Shown here piece after piece: positions 8,839-63,679 of a stretch of DNA of 64,000 bases. A program made the position numbers and the translations under genes. The DNA lies in assembly GCA_045636665.1 (NCBI GenBank), contig JAZTXY010000086.1, positions 72,031 to 136,030 of the forward strand. The letters run 5' to 3'. This DNA is from Eubacteriales bacterium. Its GTDB lineage: Bacteria; Bacillota; Clostridia; Oscillospirales; CAG-382. Positions within the stretch are counted from its first letter, which is position 1, and the number at the start of each line of letters is the position of its first letter. The notes beneath the pieces were generated by a model. That model made no database searches and had not been told where the DNA came from. It saw only the letters and a list, made by a program, of their open reading frames with translations.

Positions 8839-11256
8839 TTGGATTCGAAAAAAGCGTCCGAACGGCTTGCGCGTTACGGCAGAAACGAATTAAGCGCTAA
8901 GAAAAAGAAAAGCTTTTTGCAAAGGTTTTTCTTAGCTCTTTGCGACCGAATGACCGTTGTTTTGCTTATTGCGGCGGTGATTTCGTTCGCGACCTCTTAT
9001 ATTTCGGGCGAGGGCTTTGCCGACCCGATAATAATTTTGCTCATTGTGCTTATCAACGGTCTTATAGCCGTTGTTCAGGAAAGCCGCGCCGAGCGTTCAC
9101 TTGAGGCGCTTAGAAGGATGACATCGCCCGAAACGACGGTGCTACGCGACGGAAAAGCGGTCAGAATCCAAAGCGCGTTGCTCGTGCCGGGCGACGTGTT
9201 TTTGCTTGAAAAGGGCGATATCGTACCTGCCGACGCTCGGCTTATCGAAAGCAACGAGCTTTTAATCGACGAATCGGCGCTCACCGGCGAATCGGTCGGA
9301 GTTATGAAGGACCATAGGTCTGTTCCTCGCAAGGGCTGTCCGATTTCCGAGATGACAAACTCGGTTTTCACCTCGTCACACGTTATTTCGGGCAGAGGAA
9401 AAGCCATTGTGGTAAAAACCGGAATGTCCACCTGCGTCGGCGAAATCGCGGGGATGATAAGCGGCGAGTCGGAAAGAACACCCCTTCAAAAGCGCCTTGC
9501 AAAGCTCAGTGTTTTGCTTGGCAACGTAACTGTGGGGCTGTGTGCGGTCATATTCGTTTTTTCGCTTTTAAAGGGAATGGACGTCGGCGAAATGTTTATG
9601 ACCTCGGTTTCGCTTTCGGTTGCGGCAATTCCCGAGGGTTTGCCTGCAATTGTAACGGTTGTGCTTTCGGCAGGGGTGCAAACGATGGCAAACCGAAAAG
9701 CAATCGTAAAGCGCCTGCCTGCGGTTGAAACCTTGGGCTGTGCTCAAATAATCTGCTCGGATAAAACGGGTACTCTGACCTGCAACAAAATGACGGTCGA
9801 ATCGGTTTTCGGCGACCAACGGGAGTTGAAAAAGGCGTTTGCCTTGTGCAACAACGATTCCTCGCCGACCGAGCTTGCGCTTTCGGATTACTGCGACGGG
9901 GTCGAAAGCATCCGCGCACTCTATCCGCGTGAAGCCGAAATTCCCTTCGATTCGGTGAAAAAATATATGCTCACCGTCAATCGCAGTCAAACCGGATTTA
10001 CCGTTTACATCAAGGGCGCGCCCGACGTTGTTGCGAAATACTGCCCCGAAAAGGCGCAAGTTATCGAAAATACCACGCGTGAGATGACTAAAAACGCCTT
10101 GCGCGTTATCTGCTTTGCAAAGTATGAAACGAATCAAAAGCCGCAAAACCCGTTGTCGGGCAGATTCGAGCTTATCGGACTTTGCGGTATTTGCGATCCG
10201 CCGCGCGCCGAAGCCGCCGAGGCGGTAAAGCTGTGTAAAAAGGCAGGTATCCGCCCGATAATGATAACGGGCGATCATCCCGAAACGGCACGCGCGATTG
10301 CCGTAAAGATCGGTATGATACCCAAGGACGGTCGGGTTTGCACCGAAAGTGAGGTCGGAGCACTCGGCGACCGCGAATTTCAAAAAACGGTTGACAGCTG
10401 CAGCGTTTTCGCAAGGGTAACACCCTCGTTCAAGCTTCGTATCGTTTCGGCGCTGAAAGCAAAGGGCTACGTTGTGGCAATGACGGGCGACGGCGTCAAC
10501 GATGCGCCTGCGCTTAAAAAAGCCGATATCGGCTGTGCTATGGGAATAAGCGGAACCGAGGTCGCAAAGGAATCGGCGGATATGATACTCACCGACGATA
10601 ATTTTTCGACCGTAGTCGAGGCGGTAAAGGAGGGCAGGGGCATTTATGAAAACATCCGTCGCGCGGTGCATTTTCTGCTTTCCTGCAATATCGGTGAGCT
10701 TTTTACCGTGTTTTTCGCAATAATAACGTCGTTGCCGTCGCCGCTTTCGGCAATACAGCTGCTTTGGGTGAATTTAACCACCGATTCGCTTCCCGCAATT
10801 GCGCTGGGGCTTGAAAAAACACCCGATGACGTTATGGAACGCGAGCCGATAAAGGCAAATTCACCCTTGTTCGGCGGCGCGCGTGTTGCGAGAATTATCT
10901 TCGAGGGTATCCTTATCGGCACGCTTGCGATTTCCGCATTCGTCATCGGCAACAATACAAGCTGCATTGAAACGGGCAGAACGATGTGCTTTTTGGTTCT
11001 TGCCGTATCACAGCTTTTTCATTCGTTTAATATGCGAAGCGAAAAAAGCGTTTTCGCAAAAGGAAAACGAAAAAATCCCTTCGTGTGGGTTGCATTTTTC
11101 TTCTGTCTGCTCTTGCAAACGGCGGTTATTGTAATACCGCAAGCCGCAAAGCTTTTCGGCGCGGCATCGTTGTCGTTAAGCGAGTGGGCAATATCGCTCG
11201 CATTATCGTGCGTACCGTTGATCGTGTGTGAAATTTACAAAATGTTAAAACATTAA
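8839..11256 (+). CDS. P-type cation (Ca2+-type, P2) ATPase; the true N-terminus lies upstream of the track start
   Basis: ICSDKTGTLTCNKMTV, MITGDHPETA and MTGDGVNDAPALKKADIG motifs. Homologous N-terminal sequence (WYHENLKELYAEF..GLDSKKASERL) continues in-frame up to the stop codon at 8773-8775 (see finding). Confidence 0.85.
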   Translation: MDSKKASERLARYGRNELSAKKKKSFLQRFFLALCDRMTVVLLIAAVISFATSYISGEGFADPIIILLIVLINGLIAVVQESRAERSLEALRRMTSPETTVLRDGKAVRIQSALLVPGDVFLLEKGDIVPADARLIESNELLIDESALTGESVGVMKDHRSVPRKGCPISEMTNSVFTSSHVISGRGKAIVVKTGMSTCVGEIAGMISGESERTPLQKRLAKLSVLLGNVTVGLCAVIFVFSLLKGMDVGEMFMTSVSLSVAAIPEGLPAIVTVVLSAGVQTMANRKAIVKRLPAVETLGCAQIICSDKTGTLTCNKMTVESVFGDQRELKKAFALCNNDSSPTELALSDYCDGVESIRALYPREAEIPFDSVKKYMLTVNRSQTGFTVYIKGAPDVVAKYCPEKAQVIENTTREMTKNALRVICFAKYETNQKPQNPLSGRFELIGLCGICDPPRAEAAEAVKLCKKAGIRPIMITGDHPETARAIAVKIGMIPKDGRVCTESEVGALGDREFQKTVDSCSVFARVTPSFKLRIVSALKAKGYVVAMTGDGVNDAPALKKADIGCAMGISGTEVAKESADMILTDDNFSTVVEAVKEGRGIYENIRRAVHFLLSCNIGELFTVFFAIITSLPSPLSAIQLLWVNLTTDSLPAIALGLEKTPDDVMEREPIKANSPLFGGARVARIIFEGILIGTLAISAFVIGNNTSCIETGRTMCFLVLAVSQLFHSFNMRSEKSVFAKGKRKNPFVWVAFFFCLLLQTAVIVIPQAAKLFGAASLSLSEWAISLALSCVPLIVCEIYKMLKH

Positions 11257-11320
11257 CTCATTTTAGTTCACAAATATTGGTTATTATTTTCGTCGTAATA
11301 AAATATATTTGGAGCAAAAA

Positions 11321-12364
11321 ATGGATAAGTACACAGTAATAATAAATCAACCCATAAAGCTTGCGGGCAACGATAAGATTCGCATTCGCGGCAGACATAC
11401 CGAACAGGACGGAATGCTTGCTTTCGATTGGAGCGGAAGCGGCTTTGCCTTTAATTTCGTCGGCACGGGCTTTATCATCTCGCTCGGCGCTTATTCTCAC
11501 GATTGTCCCGCATACGTCAAAATTACGGTTGACGGCAATCACAGTCAGCGCTTTGCGGTGATAAACGGAAACGAAAAGCTTATTATCGAGGGCCTTTCGG
11601 ATAAACGCCACCGCGTAAGCGTGTTGAAGATAACCGAGGGTGAGCCCAAGCTTAAATTCGATACCGTAACGCTTCTCGGTAACGGCGCAGAGCTTCGCAA
11701 TCCCCCCTTCAACAGCCCGAGAAGAATTGAATTTATCGGCGACTCGATTACCTGCGGTTACGGTGTTCTCGGTCTTTCGACCGACCCGACCTATCTTACC
11801 TACCAACAGGACGTAACCCGTTCTTATGCAGGCGTTACGGCAGAGCGCTTCGGCGCAGACGCGCGTTTTATCGCGATTTCGGGCAAGGGTATCGTTTGTA
11901 ACTGCAACGGCGACAGAACCGATATTAAAACGGGTGAATATTATAACCTTCAATCGCGTACCGGCGGTGTTTGCGATGACGACTGGATTGCCGACGTTGT
12001 CGTTATCAACATCGGTACCAACGATTGCGGCGGACCTGCGCCCAACGATGAATTTGAAGAAGCGGCGCGTGACCTTGTTTCCAAGGTTCGTGCGCGTTAT
12101 CCCGAAGCGCATATCATTTGGCTTTACGGAATGATGAGCCAGCTTTATTCCGAGGTGCTGCGCGATACTCTGCGTGATATCTCCAAGAGGGATGAAAAGG
12201 TTCACTTTATGTTTGCCGACACCGTGTTCGGCAACGAATCCGAAATCGGCGCAAACGGACACCCCAACGTGCGCGCAAGCGTTCGTGTGAGCAATTTGCT
12301 TTACAAAAAGATTCGTTCACTCACCGGCTGGCGTAATAAAGTAACGCTTCCCGAAGAAGAATAA
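11321..12364 (+). CDS. SGNH/GDSL hydrolase, CE2-like carbohydrate esterase
   Basis: GGAG RBS then the ATG at 11321. IEFIGDSITCGYG (Ser block), GTNDCG and the GHPN block. N-terminal beta-sandwich-like region. Confidence 0.75.
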   Translation: MDKYTVIINQPIKLAGNDKIRIRGRHTEQDGMLAFDWSGSGFAFNFVGTGFIISLGAYSHDCPAYVKITVDGNHSQRFAVINGNEKLIIEGLSDKRHRVSVLKITEGEPKLKFDTVTLLGNGAELRNPPFNSPRRIEFIGDSITCGYGVLGLSTDPTYLTYQQDVTRSYAGVTAERFGADARFIAISGKGIVCNCNGDRTDIKTGEYYNLQSRTGGVCDDDWIADVVVINIGTNDCGGPAPNDEFEEAARDLVSKVRARYPEAHIIWLYGMMSQLYSEVLRDTLRDISKRDEKVHFMFADTVFGNESEIGANGHPNVRASVRVSNLLYKKIRSLTGWRNKVTLPEEE

Positions 12365-30359: not shown

Positions 30360-33300
30360 ATGGCAAACTTTTTTCTTGAAATATTCAATTTGAGCTTGGC
30401 GGCTTGTTGGCTTATCGGAGCTATTGTAGCCGTGCGCGCAATTTTCGCAAAAAGTATGCCGAAGTGGCTTGTCTGCTGTCTTTGGGGCTTGGTTGCGGTA
30501 AGATTGCTTGTTCCCGTTACGCTTGAAAGCAATATATCGCTCGTTCCCAATCAACAGCTCGAGCTTTTAATCCCGAACGAAGGCATCGGCGAGGTTTCGG
30601 AATATGTTGAAGAATCGCTTCCTTCTTTTGAAGAAAATGGTATCGATTCAACTGTTTCGGCGCCTGTAACCGATGAAGCCGTGTCATCGCCCGTAACCGA
30701 CGAGGAATTTTCCGCGCCGATTGTCGATGAAACCGTTTCTTCGCCCGTAACCGACGAAGAAGTATCTTCCCCCGTAACCGACGAAGCCGTTTCTGCCCCG
30801 ATTATCGAGGAAAATGCTTCTGCGCCCGTGACCGATGAAAATATATCGGCTTCGGTTCAGGATACCGTTATCGGCGACCAAAATACCGAAGATGTCGGCA
30901 AAACCGACGTTGCAGTTAACGGCAATATCGTTCAATCGGAAAAAACGGAGCATTCAAAAAAGGTTTCGAGCAATTTTGCCACAATTGCGTTTGCGGTATG
31001 GGCAATCGGATTCTTTTTGATGCTTGAATATTCGGTCGTAAGCTATATTCTCCTCAAAAAACGCGTTGCAATGTCGTTCCCTTGCGGCGACAAGGTACGC
31101 AAAGGCGAGGGCGTGGATTCTCCGTTTATTTTCGGACTTTTCCGTCCGCGTATTTATATCCCTTTCGGATTAAGCCAAAGAACCGAAGAATGTGTTATTG
31201 CGCATGAAAGAGCGCATTTTAAACGCCGCGACTATCTTATAAAGCCCTTTGCGTTTTTCATTCTTTCGGTGCATTGGTTCAATCCCTTCGTATGGTTGGC
31301 TTATATCCTTCTTTGCCGCGATATCGAATATGCCTGCGACGAGAAGGTCGTTGACGGTCTTGACGCCGATTCGCGTAAAGCGTACGCCCTTGCGCTGCTC
31401 GAATGTGCAGTCGCGCACCGACGTATTACCGCTTGTCCCGTAGCTTTCGGCGAGACCGGAGTGAAAGAAAGAGTGAAAAATACAATGAAATACAAAAAAC
31501 CCGCATTCTGGATAGTTATTGTTTGCGTTATCGTTTGCATTGCCGTTGCCGTGCTGTTTTTAACAACGGGCGTGGGCGGAAGTGAGGATTCCGACACCTC
31601 GTCGGAGGCATCGGACACCTCGTCGGAGGCATCGGACCCCTCGTTGGAGGCATCGGGCGAAAATCAAGTTGAACAAGACGAGAAAAATTATATCGATGAC
31701 CTTTTCGCGGCTGAATTTGTCGAATACGAGGATCTCGGCAAATACCAAAACTGCGTAAGGTTTGAATCGAGCGTTGAATACAACGTAATGAGCGTGCTCA
31801 TTACACCCAAGACAACGATATACGATTTTAAAATATATTCGTTGGAAGACAATATCGATACCGTAACACTTGAAAACATTCTTTTTGAAGCAAAAAGCAT
31901 TTCCGCCGATAAGCCGCTTCTTGCGGATATTGAGTTTGGCGATATACTTGCCGAAAACGGAATATCGTTTACCGACGAAAACGGTAATGAGTATCTTTAT
32001 AAACTTGTCGATAGTGCGTACGACGGAAAATTGATAGTTTCCGACGTGACGACGGAAGCGTCCGAGGAGAGCGATGGCACCCTTATAGTAAACGGTATCG
32101 ACATTACCAAAGGAAGCGGCGTGAAAATCTATGACGACCGTGCTGAGTTGCCTTTTGTCGCTATAATGGAAGCGTTGGGAATATCGTTTGAATGGAAAAC
32201 AGACAGCACTGCCATAATGACGTACGGTTCGATTAAACCGTATCTTTTAGACGTAAAAAAAGGAGAATTGACCGACTATGTCGGAGGTGACGGCAGAAAT
32301 CACTTTACGGCATACAGCGATTCACCTCTCGGTTTTGTTTCTCTTGAAAAAGAAATATTGATTGACGATGTCAATGCTGCTGCGTTTTTCTCCGAAATGG
32401 GTTTTGTGTTCAGAATTTCTTACTTTGATATAAATTTCAAAGATAAGATTATCAGTATCGGCAGAGATACAAATGATTATAAATGCACGCTCATTGTAAA
32501 CGGAAATGATATTACCGACAGCACTCATGTAGTTATGAAAAGCGATGATGGCAATTATACGCTTTTGCCGTTCGTTGAGATTATGGAGGTGCTTGGAGCC
32601 GAATTTGAATGGGAAAGTGACTATGTTGCAAAAATAGAATTTCTCGAAATGCGGTTTGCGTTGAATGTAAAAGAATGCAAATTAATCGCCGAAGAAAATG
32701 ACGTTAATCTTATTAGTCCGCCGTTGGGAGGAACAAGAAAATTCTCTGCCGACAAGAAGGAATTAATAGTCGACAATGTTACATTAAAACAATTTTTTGA
32801 TGCCGCGGGAATTAACGCGCTATATGACTATAACAAAAAAATTGTTACGATCAGCACAAAATCTTCGGGGAACGAAGCAAGCAACAACGAACCCCACGTT
32901 CACGTTTACGGGGAATGGAAAACGGTTACTGCCGCGACCTGTCAAAGTACGGGTGTGGTCGAGCGTGTTTGCTCTTGCGGTGACAAGCAGCTTCAAAGCG
33001 TGAATATAACTCAGCATAAATACGTCAACGGCGTTTGCTCTTGCGGTGCGATCGAAAGCGCAAGCGACATCGAGGACGGAACGTTGACGTTCAGTATGAC
33101 AAACGGCGGATATAAGGTTTCGGGAAAGGGTTTTAACGGCAGCGTGGTCGTTATCCCGAGCACCTTTATGGGAAAGCCGGTTGTTGAGATTGCTCAGGAT
33201 GCATTTGGCGGAAACCGCAATATCGAAAGAGTCGTGATTCCCAAAACCGTTAAAACGATTGGTAGTCATGCGTTTTTGCATTGCTTTTTCCTTAGAGAGG

Positions 33301-34340
33301 TTATTTTTGAAGAGGGAAGCGAGCTTATAAGCATCGGCGACAGCGCGTTCAATAACACCGCGATCGTTTCGATAACACTGCCCGAGGGCTTAAAAACCAT
33401 CGGTGAGGGTGCGTTCAATTCCTGCGACGATATGAAGGAAATAACTCTGCCCTCTACGCTTAAATCAATCGGCAGTAACGCCTTCAGATACTCTACCGTT
33501 AGCAAGGTTACTGTCAAAGACATAGGCAAATGGTGCACTGTTTCGTTTGGTAACGAATATGCTAACCCTGCATATATTTCGCAAAGCCTTTATGCTCCCG
33601 ACGGCTCTTTGGTTACAAGAGTAAACGTTTCCAACGGAGCGTCCGAGATATCGGCGTATGCCTTTTGCGGAGTGAAAACCATCGAAAGCGTAAGCATTCC
33701 GTCGACCGTTAAGAAAATCGGAGTCGATGCGTTTGCAGATTGCAAGACTCTTGACGTTTATATTACCGACCTCACAAAATGGGCACAGGTTTCTGTTGCG
33801 AGTGCAGATTCTCTGCCCGGCAAGCGACTGTTTCTTAACGGTGTCGAGATAAAGGACGTCGTTATTCCCTCGGGTGTCACCTCGATAGGAAGCTATGCCT
33901 TCAGCTTTGCATCGCTTACCTCGGTCACCGTGCCCGATACCGTGAAAACCATCGGAGAGGGTGCTTTTCACTATTGCACAAATCTTCAAAGCATAAAGCT
34001 TTCAAAGAACCTTACCGAAATACCGAAGAATATGCTTTACGGTGCATCGTCGTTGAAGACGGTTGTTATTCCCAATACGGTAAAAACTATTGGTGAATCG
34101 GCATTTGAGGGTTGTATCTCGCTTGAATCGATGTTCATACCCGCAAGCGTTACCTATATCGGAAAGCACGCGTTTGAAAATTGCGGTAGCTTGAAGGAAT
34201 TTGAATTCGAGGTCAAGGACGGCTGGGTATGCGCCGCAACCGGTGGCGACTATACGGTCCATGCAAGCGATCTTTCAACATCGTATAAAACGATAGCAAA
34301 GATAAAGGATTACAATTTTGCACCGTGGGTGCGAAGATAG
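30360..34340 (+). CDS. M56 (BlaR1/MecR1-type) membrane metalloprotease fused to a ~900-aa extracellular region (Cu-amine-oxidase-N-like x2, Cys cluster, ~12 BspA-type LRRs)
   Basis: IAHERAHFKRRDYLIKPF (HExxH) sits between TM helices. LIVNGxDIT..LPFVxIMExLGxxFEW occurs twice. Repeated IPxTVKxIGxxAFxxC units run to the C-terminus. Confidence 0.8.
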   Translation: MANFFLEIFNLSLAACWLIGAIVAVRAIFAKSMPKWLVCCLWGLVAVRLLVPVTLESNISLVPNQQLELLIPNEGIGEVSEYVEESLPSFEENGIDSTVSAPVTDEAVSSPVTDEEFSAPIVDETVSSPVTDEEVSSPVTDEAVSAPIIEENASAPVTDENISASVQDTVIGDQNTEDVGKTDVAVNGNIVQSEKTEHSKKVSSNFATIAFAVWAIGFFLMLEYSVVSYILLKKRVAMSFPCGDKVRKGEGVDSPFIFGLFRPRIYIPFGLSQRTEECVIAHERAHFKRRDYLIKPFAFFILSVHWFNPFVWLAYILLCRDIEYACDEKVVDGLDADSRKAYALALLECAVAHRRITACPVAFGETGVKERVKNTMKYKKPAFWIVIVCVIVCIAVAVLFLTTGVGGSEDSDTSSEASDTSSEASDPSLEASGENQVEQDEKNYIDDLFAAEFVEYEDLGKYQNCVRFESSVEYNVMSVLITPKTTIYDFKIYSLEDNIDTVTLENILFEAKSISADKPLLADIEFGDILAENGISFTDENGNEYLYKLVDSAYDGKLIVSDVTTEASEESDGTLIVNGIDITKGSGVKIYDDRAELPFVAIMEALGISFEWKTDSTAIMTYGSIKPYLLDVKKGELTDYVGGDGRNHFTAYSDSPLGFVSLEKEILIDDVNAAAFFSEMGFVFRISYFDINFKDKIISIGRDTNDYKCTLIVNGNDITDSTHVVMKSDDGNYTLLPFVEIMEVLGAEFEWESDYVAKIEFLEMRFALNVKECKLIAEENDVNLISPPLGGTRKFSADKKELIVDNVTLKQFFDAAGINALYDYNKKIVTISTKSSGNEASNNEPHVHVYGEWKTVTAATCQSTGVVERVCSCGDKQLQSVNITQHKYVNGVCSCGAIESASDIEDGTLTFSMTNGGYKVSGKGFNGSVVVIPSTFMGKPVVEIAQDAFGGNRNIERVVIPKTVKTIGSHAFLHCFFLREVIFEEGSELISIGDSAFNNTAIVSITLPEGLKTIGEGAFNSCDDMKEITLPSTLKSIGSNAFRYSTVSKVTVKDIGKWCTVSFGNEYANPAYISQSLYAPDGSLVTRVNVSNGASEISAYAFCGVKTIESVSIPSTVKKIGVDAFADCKTLDVYITDLTKWAQVSVASADSLPGKRLFLNGVEIKDVVIPSGVTSIGSYAFSFASLTSVTVPDTVKTIGEGAFHYCTNLQSIKLSKNLTEIPKNMLYGASSLKTVVIPNTVKTIGESAFEGCISLESMFIPASVTYIGKHAFENCGSLKEFEFEVKDGWVCAATGGDYTVHASDLSTSYKTIAKIKDYNFAPWVRR
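30654..30869 (+). repeat. 27-nt (9-aa) tandem repeat x8 inside the M56 gene
   Basis: VSAPVTDEA / VSSPVTDEE / FSAPIVDET ... The copies diverge at synonymous sites. Confidence 0.85.
31593..31655 (+). repeat. 21-nt tandem repeat x3 (DTSSEAS linker) inside the M56 gene
   Basis: GACACCTCGTCGGAGGCATCG occurs twice, followed by one diverged copy. Confidence 0.85.
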
Positions 34341-47886: not shown

Positions 47887-47995
47887 TTGCACGAAGTGCA
47901 ACATCGTTTTGTGTCCGCAAGCTGAATGATGTTTTCGCTTTGCGAAAAATGATGTTGACCCTACGGTCAAACGATGTTGTGTCCTTACGGACACA
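47887..47995. repeat. Array of short stem-loops separated by (A/C)(T/G)GATGT spacers
   Basis: TTGCAC-GAA-GTGCAA; TTTTCGC-TTT-GCGAAAA; TGACC-CTAC-GGTCA; TGTGTCC-TTAC-GGACACA. See finding. Confidence 0.7.
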
Positions 47996-52578: not shown

Positions 52579-52710
52579 AAGTGTGTCCTCCTTGCGGTTT
52601 TTGTTACAAATGTATTCACAAGGAATTTTGTATAGAACCGATTGACATTGAATGTTTTTTGTGCTATCCTAAATTTTAGTAAAAAACTCTCGTTTTTGGA
52701 GGCGAATGTA

Positions 52711-53775
52711 ATGAAGGAAATAAAGAGAATAGGCGTACTTACCAGCGGCGGCGACGCTCCGGGTATGAACGCGGCGGTTCGTGCGGTAACGCGTCTTGCC
52801 TTGTATAAAGGTATCGAGGTTATGGGTATTTATAACGGATACCAAGGCCTTATCGAGGATAATATTAAGCCGCTTCACGAACGTGACGTTTCTTTTATTA
52901 TAAACCGCGGCGGAACGATGCTTTATTCTGCAAGAAGCAACGATTTCCGCACCAAAGAGGGCAGAGCAAAGGCGGTTGAAAACTGCAAAAAGCACGGTAT
53001 CGACGGCATCGTTACCATTGGCGGCGACGGCACCTTCCGCGGCGCTGTTGAGCTTACCAACGACGGTGTGCCCTGCATCGGTATCCCTGCTACCATTGAT
53101 AACGATATCGCATCGACCGAAGCTACCATCGGCTTCGATACTGCGATGAACACCGTTGTCGACCTTGTCGATAAGCTCCGCGATACGAGTGAAAGCCATT
53201 CGCGCTGTACCGTAGTTGAGGTTATGGGCAGAGAAGCAGGCGATATCGCGCTTCAAACCTCGATCGCACTTGGTGCGGTTACTGCGGTAATCCGTGAAAT
53301 CCCCACCGATTTTGACCACGTTATCGAAAAAATGGTTGCGGCACGAAAGGGCGGCAAGCGTAATTTCATTATCATCACCTGTGAAGGCATGGGCAAGGAG
53401 TACGGTGAAGAATTAAGCGCTATGATCGAAGCAAGAAGCGGTATCGAAAGCCGTTTTGCACGTCTTGCTCACATTCAACGCGGCGGCGCACCCACGCTTC
53501 GCGACCGTGTGCTTGCGACTCAAATGGGCTGTGCGGCTGTCGAAAACCTTATTGCAGGACAGATGAAGCAGGTTATGTGTCTGCGCGGTAACAATATCGT
53601 ATCGATGGATATTTTCGATGCGCTTACCGTTGATAAGCTTATGAAGGGCAAGCTTAAGCTCGAGGAGGAAGAACGCATCCCCCCCAACAAGCTCTATGAA
53701 ATGAAGCGCATAGTTGCCGATAAACAAGCTTATAAGAAGTATCTTAACTATATTATCGACCACATAACGCTTTAA
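52711..53775 (+). CDS. pfkA: ATP-dependent 6-phosphofructokinase with a ~35-aa C-terminal extension
   Basis: GGAGG RBS. IGVLTSGGDAPGMNAA, GGDGTFRGA and PATIDNDI motifs. Confidence 0.85.
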   Translation: MKEIKRIGVLTSGGDAPGMNAAVRAVTRLALYKGIEVMGIYNGYQGLIEDNIKPLHERDVSFIINRGGTMLYSARSNDFRTKEGRAKAVENCKKHGIDGIVTIGGDGTFRGAVELTNDGVPCIGIPATIDNDIASTEATIGFDTAMNTVVDLVDKLRDTSESHSRCTVVEVMGREAGDIALQTSIALGAVTAVIREIPTDFDHVIEKMVAARKGGKRNFIIITCEGMGKEYGEELSAMIEARSGIESRFARLAHIQRGGAPTLRDRVLATQMGCAAVENLIAGQMKQVMCLRGNNIVSMDIFDALTVDKLMKGKLKLEEEERIPPNKLYEMKRIVADKQAYKKYLNYIIDHITL

Positions 53776-53860
53776 GTATAAACGTAAAAACGCTGTGCGA
53801 TCGAGACGTGCTCTAAAGGACAGCCGCAAATCAAACAGAATATGTTACCTACCGACAGGA

Positions 53861-53897
53861 GAAGGACGAAGAATTGTTAGAATTCCTCGTCCTTTTT
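53861..53897 (+). terminator. Rho-independent terminator after pfkA
   Basis: AAGGACGAAGAATT-loop-AATTCCTCGTCCTT followed by TTTT. Confidence 0.7.
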
Positions 53898-53939
53898 GCT
53901 TGACAAGCACTGCTTCTGTGACCGCAGAAGCTATTTTCG

Positions 53940-54120
53940 GTTATGAGTTATGAGGTTCGCTTACGCTCACCGTTATGAGTTCGCTCCGCAAACGTTATGA
54001 TGTGATCGCCTTGTTACTTCAAGCTGTGCCATAGGCACATCATAACTTGGCGTAGCCAATCATAACTATAAACTCGCCGTAGGCGATCATAGCTGCGTAG
54101 TGTCCTTAAGGGCACTACGC
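53940..54120. repeat. Heptamer/hairpin module array (GTTATGA x4, then TCATAAC-type x3 interleaved with perfect stem-loops)
   Basis: See finding. TGTGCC-ATA-GGCACA; TTGGC-GTA-GCCAA; TCGCC-GTA-GGCGA; GCGTAGTGTCC-TTAA-GGGCACTACGC. Confidence 0.75.
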
Positions 54121-54232
54121 TATTGCACGGCGTTTTTTGTCGCTTGGTGAAAGGGATTAGCCTTTGTTGAGAATGACATATAAAGCCGACAAAACGGTAT
54201 GCAAATTCTTTAAAACGAAATCGTCAATTCGA

Positions 54233-54261
54233 TTGACACCCGATAATAATTGTGATATAAT
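54233..54261 (+). promoter_or_regulatory. Sigma-A type promoter for rlmB
   Basis: TTGACA-N17-TATAAT. Confidence 0.65.
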
Positions 54262-63513: not shown

Positions 63514-63679
63514 ACGATTTGGGGGGCGTTGTTATACCAAAAGAAATCCGTCGAGTTATGAGGATTCGTGAGGGCGACCCCTCGCATACCACATTGATAC
63601 CTTTCGACAGGTTTTGTTTGGCAATACATAGTGTGGTTAATAGGTATAAAGCAACAGCGAGGTGAATTTCACCTCGCTT

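Follow-up and report, generated by a model that had tools for sequence, protein, structure and literature searches.

The block described here lies between the genes for 6-phosphofructokinase (pfkA) and RlmB, with SpoIVA encoded upstream, in a stretch of 64 kb of DNA that is referred to as the window in the following. It is built of the heptamer GTTATGA and its complement TCATAAC, interleaved with small hairpins, and a preliminary description presented it as an orphan between a pfkA terminator (53861-53897) and an rlmB promoter (54233-54261). A consensus promoter is indeed found at 54233-54261, about 100 nt outside the element delimited below. Past its profile matches, the phosphofructokinase frame (52642-53775) extends by about 20-35 residues at the C terminus, an extension common to the relatives that match over all 354 residues. 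The features of the locus, together with an array found elsewhere in the window, are the following.

53786 to 53801, plus strand: 5' half of the split stem of the pfkA terminator, an A-tract followed by ACGCTGTGCGAT, pairing with 54122-54133
53802 to 54121, plus strand: inserted modular repeat element of about 320 bp, delimited by homology to its copies, with ends approximate to within a few bases
53808 to 53823, plus strand: left subterminal inverted repeat GTGCTCTAAAGGACAG, 13 of 15 positions complementary to 54101-54115
53862 to 53897, plus strand: internal hairpin and T-run resembling a Rho-independent terminator, a 14-nt inverted repeat with 93% complementarity
53912 to 53931, plus strand: second conserved hairpin GCTTCTGTGACCGCAGAAGC with a stem of 8 pairs, preceded by the conserved CTTGACAAGCAYTGC
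53940 to 54000, plus strand: left arm, with four GTTATGA, a conserved non-hairpin spacer (53954-53971) and a hairpin (53979-53993)
54001 to 54024, plus strand: centre, TGTGATCGCC and a variable tract, with 54001-54010 complementary to 54082-54091
54025 to 54093, plus strand: right arm, comprising in order hairpin 54025-54039, TCATAAC 54040-54046, hairpin 54047-54059, TCATAAC 54060-54066, degenerate TATAAAC 54067-54073, hairpin 54074-54086 and TCATAGC 54087-54093
54095 to 54120, plus strand: terminal 11-bp hairpin GCGTAGTGTCC-TTAA-GGGCACTACGC, which holds the right inverted repeat (54101-54115)
54122 to 54139, plus strand: 3' half of the split stem of the pfkA terminator, ATTGCACGGCGT followed by TTTTTTG
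47887 to 47995: sister array after the tRNA-His terminator, with variable hairpins separated by the linker ATGATG or ACGATG (CATCGT on the other arm)

The four GTTATGA (starting at 53940, 53947, 53972 and 53994) and the two TCATAAC (starting at 54040 and 54060) lie where they had been placed in the preliminary description, and TCATAGC is present as well, at 54087-54093, one base away from the position given there (54088). On both strands of the whole window GTTATGA occurs 19 times, against 6.94 ± 2.67 expected from dinucleotide shuffles, none of 100 shuffles reaching 19, and 6 of the 19 matches are packed into 127 nt. Three of the four hairpins that had been called perfect are so (54025-54039, 54047-54059 and 54074-54086), while the one at 54095-54120 has a T.G among its 11 pairs and is near-perfect. 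The long-range complementarity reported between GTTATGATGTG (53994-54004) and CACATCATAAC (54036-54046) is exact, and the 3' end of the block is GGCGTTTTTTG (54129-54139), as described. The region is predicted to fold better than shuffled sequence on either strand (z = -4.9 and -4.1), the former value belonging to the plus strand, whose MFE structure joins the left heptamers to the right heptamers.

The flanks of the element, ACGCTGTGCGAT (53790-53801) and ATTGCACGGCGT (54122-54133), form a 12-bp stem in which two pairs are G.U and which is framed by the A-tract and the T-tract. Joined together, they give a hairpin of -22 kcal/mol, and in the MFE structure of the full region this helix is the closing one; a simple terminator scan also marks 54117-54133. 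Because the flanks form such a stem with A and T tracts, we conclude that the window copy is inserted in a terminator, and the most economical interpretation places the element within the loop of the original pfkA terminator, which is the split stem 53790-53801/54122-54133. The hairpin at 53862-53897, previously taken for the pfkA terminator, does exist, but it is common to copies of the repeat unit that are not behind pfkA and thus belongs to the element. Neither is the block an orphan, as it makes up most of a repeat element of about 320 bp that has many relatives and lies inside the loop of a terminator.

The subterminal inverted repeats of the window element (53808-53822 and 54101-54115, complementary at 13 of 15 positions) have the core TGTCCTTAAGGACA. 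The end motif CTCTWAAGGACAG is also present at the left end of locus L221 and of the copies represented by L217, and the motif pair ends the L217-type copies too. The sole open frame in the unit is an ORF of 52 codons (53795-53953) with no family match, and the array itself contains no ORF. A possible AT/TA target duplication is seen at the window junctions (GCGAT-element-ATTGC) and in the L217-type copies; L262 differs, its flanks being a 30-nt direct repeat of the 3' half of a terminator. In L285 and L265 the flanks are complementary and followed by a T tract, as in the window copy.

A scan of metagenome contigs with a single pattern, consisting of two right-arm modules and a third heptamer, returns 103 loci, and the same architecture is seen in dozens of metagenome loci. 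At least two perfect heptamer-hairpin-heptamer modules are found in 74 of these loci and modules on both strands in 35, with 288 modules in 469 kb, and about 45 loci show the full two-armed layout. A two-module pattern, which gave nine chance matches, guided the choice of the final one. In viral contigs the same pattern has only two matches, one (L337) with surroundings that contain no array and the other (L212) resembling, in an earlier scan, a chance match; the three-heptamer pattern is too unspecific there, chance matches being among the matches listed. No match to the family is found in plasmid and phage collections. Many of the family loci, like many of the RAYT homologues discussed below, are on contigs of 1-2 kb, and stop-to-stop ORF calls are too noisy to relate the orientation of the elements to the flanking genes.

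The copies of the window type (L221, L262, L273, L281, L283, L289 and L297) share homology with it only from about 53808 to 54120-54122, a segment that takes in the hairpins 53862-53897 and 53912-53931; none of them lies behind pfkA, and their flanks are unrelated. Over about 330 bp the copies of the L217 type are near-identical; their ends are inverted repeats, and the sequence on both sides is again unrelated. Between the conserved ends and centre, the number of modules varies from 2 to 5 in the left arm and from 2 to 10 in the right arm. Some loci consist of near-identical tandem runs of an 18-bp unit, TCATAACTTGCGMAGCAA, of which L261 has ten copies. In L261 and L317 the arms stand on both sides of the promoter of the next gene and do not make a bounded unit, which shows that both arms need not be transcribed as one. 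The 64-kb window has one full copy, the 14-kb contig L317 carries two elements, and the 1.26 Mb around pfkA in relatives contain just two other GTTATGA clusters, the third cluster (L194) being in a different context. In L228 (60-540) two L217-type elements follow each other head to tail. The leading one breaks off after the first module of its right arm, a sign of a nested insertion or a partial tandem duplication. The family is large and is found in uncultured ruminant-gut Clostridia, and the organism of the window itself falls among uncultured Clostridia/Oscillospiraceae of the ruminant hindgut; searches of the literature by sequence words and by concept return no description of it or of its grammar.

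The modules follow a simple rule, in which the heptamer is constant and the hairpin is not. Of 248 unique inter-heptamer spacers, 171 are hairpins with stems of 4-8 bp, whose sequences differ both within and between arrays; the spacers measure 11-20 nt and show no helical phasing. On the TCATAAC strand, 101 of the 171 hairpins have G...A loops (GAA 34, GCA 18, GCAA 15, GTAA 11, GTCA 9, GGA 8, GTA 6), and the exact words GCGAAGC and CCGAAGG are frequent. In both arms, when the strand of the module itself is read, C-G is the usual closing pair of the GNA and GNNA loops. Since the two arms lie on opposite strands, this asymmetry is a property of the module rather than of a single transcript. The loops, among them GTCA and GTTA, which are not RNA GNRA loops, would lean towards a role as single-stranded or extruded DNA.

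An alignment of nine close copies across the whole array shows that the stems are maintained by compensatory change. Both sides have changed in 13 of the 54 hairpin pairs, a number reached in none of 500 shuffles, and the changes are concentrated in the hairpin 54025-54039 (4 of 6 pairs) and the terminal hairpin (7 of 11), with 1 of 5 in the hairpin 54047-54059. The hairpin 53979-53993 has a C.A mismatch in the window and is a perfect GTTTGC-TYC-GCAAAC in other copies. The hairpin 53862-53897 is likewise kept in other copies through compensatory changes, and the stem 53912-53931 is formed by different sequences in L273, L281 and L289. The centre sequence TATGAT[C/T]GCC is matched, in 23 of 25 members, by an exact 8-nt complement further along, at a distance of 69-75 nt in 21 members and of 34 and 42 nt in the remaining two. 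This complementarity comes in three covarying forms, ATCGCC/GGCGAT, ATTGCC/GGCAAT and ATTCGC/GCGAAT. The long-range pairs between heptamers are invariant in the copies compared, and because they never vary, covariation neither supports nor refutes them. Strict heptamer conservation and the covariation of the stems would be just as compatible with a functional RNA or with protein binding.

The closest relative, L127, whose PfkA is 97% identical, has no such block behind pfkA, and the block is likewise absent upstream of rlmB in L001, L002 and L006, whose RlmB proteins are 85-92% identical. Among the other close relatives the pfkA terminators are all different, and no empty-site allele of the window's terminator is found among them. 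As close relatives conserve the block neither next to rlmB nor behind pfkA, the idea of a syntenic, conserved ncRNA is rejected. The same architecture is found directly behind pfkA in L201, whose PfkA is 54% identical, with five GTTATGA/GTTATAA modules and their hairpins, the centre, four TCATAAC/TCATAGY modules and their hairpins, and a long terminal hairpin. In the relative with the closest rlmB (L001, 92%), the start of the contig (1-30) coincides with a terminator located some 130 nt before rlmB, which corresponds to the right flank of the element in the window; this start may be an assembly break at the repeat.

Words of the block had also been reported from three other places in the window, and these turn out to be of different kinds. 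The one at 47887-47995 is a true sister array, which includes GTGTCCTTACGGACAC, a sequence close to the core of the terminal hairpin of the main element. At the orthologous tRNA-His terminator site, arrays are present in L127, L128, L131 and L134, with different numbers of modules and with a reversed order of the arms in L127, while L129, L132, L133 and L136 have the site without an array. Such a quick turnover at an orthologous site marks unstable repeat DNA rather than a conserved RNA gene. At 63555-63585, right after a terminator, there is one GTTATGA with a 7-bp hairpin (GTGAGGG-CGAC-CCCTCGC), which may be a solo or truncated module. The third place, 2516-2570, has loose words only; blastn of this segment and of 63553-63585 against the family loci gives no matches.

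Two further observations in the window concern repeats of other types. An 80-nt direct repeat (2433-2512 and 2614-2693, 99% identical), which comprises a terminator and the 3' end of a tRNA-Leu, brackets a hairpin-rich insert of 101 nt (2513-2613) that has no blastn match among the family loci; the arrangement resembles an att-type duplication or the result of insertion at the 3' end of a tRNA gene. At 31597-31650, three tandem copies of CCTCGTCGGAGG + CATCGGACA lie in an ORF of 1326 codons (30360-34340) and constitute a coding repeat that mimics a hairpin chain.

On the basis of these results, we consider it probable, at roughly 0.72, that the block is the array part of a non-coding modular repeat of about 320 bp, similar to MITE, BOX and BIME elements, that has inserted into the pfkA terminator at its apical loop. 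Such an element would be composed, in this order, of inverted repeats, a terminator-like hairpin, a left arm of GTTATGA and hairpins, a centre, an inverted right arm and a long terminal hairpin. The reading follows from the recurrence of the architecture, the copies with unrelated flanks, the variation in module number and the interruption of the terminator. Among the three options offered in the preliminary description, it is thus the miniature repeat family that is supported, while nothing found here favours the sRNA or the protein-binding array. Most of the characteristics of a MITE are displayed by the window element, namely a small non-coding unit, subterminal inverted repeats and multiple copies with unrelated flanks across metagenome contigs. 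The AT/TA duplication is a possible one, and no cognate autonomous IS with the same inverted repeats is found in the family loci.

In form, the closest known elements are the BOX elements of Streptococcus pneumoniae, with the REP/BIME mosaics also close. The BOX elements have the composition boxA-boxBn-boxC (PMC3049150). Like the window element they are non-coding, intergenic, MITE-like composites (67-637 bp; PMC3049150), with fixed end modules, a variable number of tandem internal modules (here 2-5 on the left and 2-10 on the right), inverted-repeat ends and a tightly folded predicted structure. In contrast to the 45-nt constant boxB, the module here is a 7-nt constant word with a hairpin of variable sequence, the arrays form two inverted arms, and the host clade is different. 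REPs are 20-40 bp long, constant in sequence within a family, and bear an unpaired GTAG or CGTC tag (PMC3733652, PMC2817692). The REP/BIME mosaics share with the window family the short GC-rich extragenic palindromes, the clustering in mosaic arrays, the location near gene 3' ends and terminators and the lineage specificity, and a RAYT gene lies beside arrays twice here. However, in the present family the palindromes vary and the heptamer is constant, the constant flank being TCATAAC/GTTATGA instead of a GTAG or CGTC tag, and the link to RAYT is not reproduced in homologues.

Insertion into the apical loop of an extragenic palindrome also has a counterpart, since IS1397 and ISKpn1 are autonomous elements of the IS3 family that target the loops of REPs. 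The palindrome entered here is a Rho-independent terminator (in the window, L285 and L265), and the inserted unit is non-coding, unlike IS1397 and ISKpn1. The Correia or NEMIS-type elements of Neisseria are non-coding, about 100-300 bp long, and have inverted-repeat ends and a possible TA/AT duplication. They resemble the window element in inserting near genes and in carrying terminator- or promoter-like signals, but have no internal array of linker-plus-hairpin modules, and for the window element the target duplication is only possible. MITEs in general are covered by a review (PMC10969869). At the level of the single module, the DNA mini-hairpins d(GCGNAGC) and d(GCGNNAGC) are very stable and are known from individual sites, including phage origins, ssiA and N4 promoters (PMC13037366). 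The module hairpins follow the same C-GNA-G or C-GNNA-G pattern, which is dominant here; they differ in forming arrays, and a function as single-stranded DNA would be suggested by their loops.

Other repetitive systems can be set aside on their architecture. The constant part is just 7 nt and the variable parts are palindromic, against the 24-48-nt repeats and non-palindromic spacers of a CRISPR array. Integron attC sites follow the consensus RYYYAAC ... GTTRRRY, which brackets an imperfect palindrome beside gene cassettes. Here the order is reversed (GTTATGA ... TCATAAC), the consensus fits only at GTT/AAC, and there are no cassettes. ToxI-type antitoxin arrays and Fur-family 7-1-7 boxes are rejected on the same grounds.

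One alternative is a structured ncRNA on the plus strand, either an sRNA or a pfkA 3'UTR element, in which the heptamers would pair into a multi-way junction ladder or would be displayed unpaired between the hairpins as sites for an RNA-binding protein. This is unlikely. It would explain why the plus-strand fold beats shuffles and joins the heptamers of the two arms, why the stems covary and why a 10-nt complement to the centre is conserved further downstream, with three covarying versions; 26 loops are of the GNRA type (GCAA, GUAA), and the T.G of the terminal hairpin is a wobble pair on the plus strand only. However, the loop asymmetry tracks the orientation of the module, with GNA on the plus strand in the right arm and on the minus strand in the left arm, non-GNRA loops (GTCA, GTTA, GCCA) are common, and the heptamer pairs are beyond the reach of covariation. 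A strong terminator stands between pfkA and the array, and no sigma-70-type promoter is found upstream, the TTGACA at 53900 having no usable -10. The numbers of modules and the order of the arms vary widely, L261 and L317 straddle a promoter, and the closest relative has no element. With Rfam 15, the window, the block and 22 family loci give nothing at the gathering score, the block shows only noise at E up to 10 and 20 family loci only noise at E up to 0.1, so that no known RNA family is matched at any threshold. It could also be argued that TCATAGC and TCATAGT, through G.U pairs with GUUAUGA, indicate an RNA of the plus strand; this argument is dropped because the mirrored variants GCTATGA and ACTATGA occur in left arms.

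Mobilisation by a RAYT, that is, a REP/BIME-type repeat moved by a Y1 HUH enzyme acting on single-stranded DNA hairpins, is quite improbable. It is attractive for the clustered extragenic palindromes with inverted arms, for the GNA/GNNA loops, which suit single-stranded DNA, and for two RAYT-like Y1 transposase genes located within about 100 nt of arrays, in L291 (1199-1702, minus strand) and L296 (390-884, plus strand). These genes are recognised by NCBIfam REP_Tyr_transpos (E = 8e-18) and by Pfam Y1_Tnp above the cut-off, and in L291 the RAYT cassette stands between two copies of a TCATAAC array. The link does not hold in seven distinct homologue loci (from L319-L336), which have GTAG hairpins or none and no heptamer array. 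The GTAG-tagged hairpins of the homologues are canonical and constant in sequence, and they are present in L291 and L296 as well, whereas the array hairpins are not constant and have no GTAG or CGTC tag. In addition, no RAYT gene is found in the window or in the 1.26 Mb of the relatives' pfkA loci. These Clostridia thus also have a classical REP/RAYT system of their own; in L291, L296 and L319-L322 its hairpins have a bulged base, as in GTAGGGGCGAGCATTGCTCGTCCCC, and this GTAG repeat is separate from the heptamer arrays.

Finally, an array of double-stranded binding sites, at which a regulator or nucleoid protein would recognise GTTATGA and control pfkA or rlmB, is highly improbable: the heptamer is strictly conserved in very distant genomes such as L201 while the intervening sequence varies, the inverted arms would suit dimeric binding and some arrays flank a promoter, but the spacing of the heptamers is loose and unphased, the spacers are constrained to be palindromes, which such binding does not need, the arrays occur in many unrelated gene contexts, and the rlmB promoter is about 100 nt outside the element.

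Returning to the modular repeat, its movement would require an enzyme acting in trans that recognises the heptamer and the shape of the hairpin. That both word and shape would be read is suggested by the strict conservation of the heptamer while the stems vary, and by the change of the linker word between lineages. Recognition would probably take place on single-stranded or extruded DNA, considering that GNA/GNNA loops closed by C-G lie on the module's strand in both arms. Regarding a candidate enzyme, no transposase with matching inverted repeats is found, and no gene in the family loci is bracketed by the inverted repeats of the element (GTRCTCTWAAGGACAG), the end motif being confined to element ends. 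The arrays may lengthen and shorten through replication slippage. The palindromes would stay perfect either via selection for pairing or through template-switch correction, a process established for quasi-palindromes in E. coli. The effect on the host may be passive, with additional terminator or insulator hairpins between pfkA and rlmB.

The change of the linker word is documented by scanning 1.26 Mb of relatives for perfect hairpins in chains, whatever the linker, which returns the constant linkers ATGATG/CATCAT, CATCGT, GCGATAT, GTGATAT, ATATCG, TATGGAAT and TATATCAT. In a distant relative, L202, four arrays (9116-9244 and 11188-11630) of up to seven variable hairpins, with the octamers TATGGAAT or TATATCAT between them, flank pfkA on both sides in a single orientation. 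A broader and more tentative proposal is that these arrays form a new superfamily of prokaryotic repeats with an "inverse-CRISPR" grammar, in which lineage-specific words of 6-8 nt (GTTATGA, ATGATG, GCGATAT, GTGATAT, TATGGAAT and TATATCAT) punctuate variable palindromes, characterised as DNA mini-hairpins by their C-GNA-G / C-GNNA-G loops, and which could be made and maintained by an enzyme that recognises linker word and hairpin shape on single-stranded DNA and prefers the loops of terminators.

The finding matters for the annotation of MAGs of rumen and hindgut Clostridia, where such blocks would otherwise be taken for sRNAs or terminators, or be lost at contig breaks. Since the arrays change between relatives whose PfkA proteins are 90-97% identical, they could serve as strain markers. 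The element brings a terminator hairpin of its own and splits that of the host, and it would thereby rewire 3' ends and the insulation between genes. The combination of a constant heptamer with freely covarying mini-hairpins implies that a shape and a short word are recognised together, which is a tractable question for the study of single-stranded-DNA enzymes and of the maintenance of palindromes.
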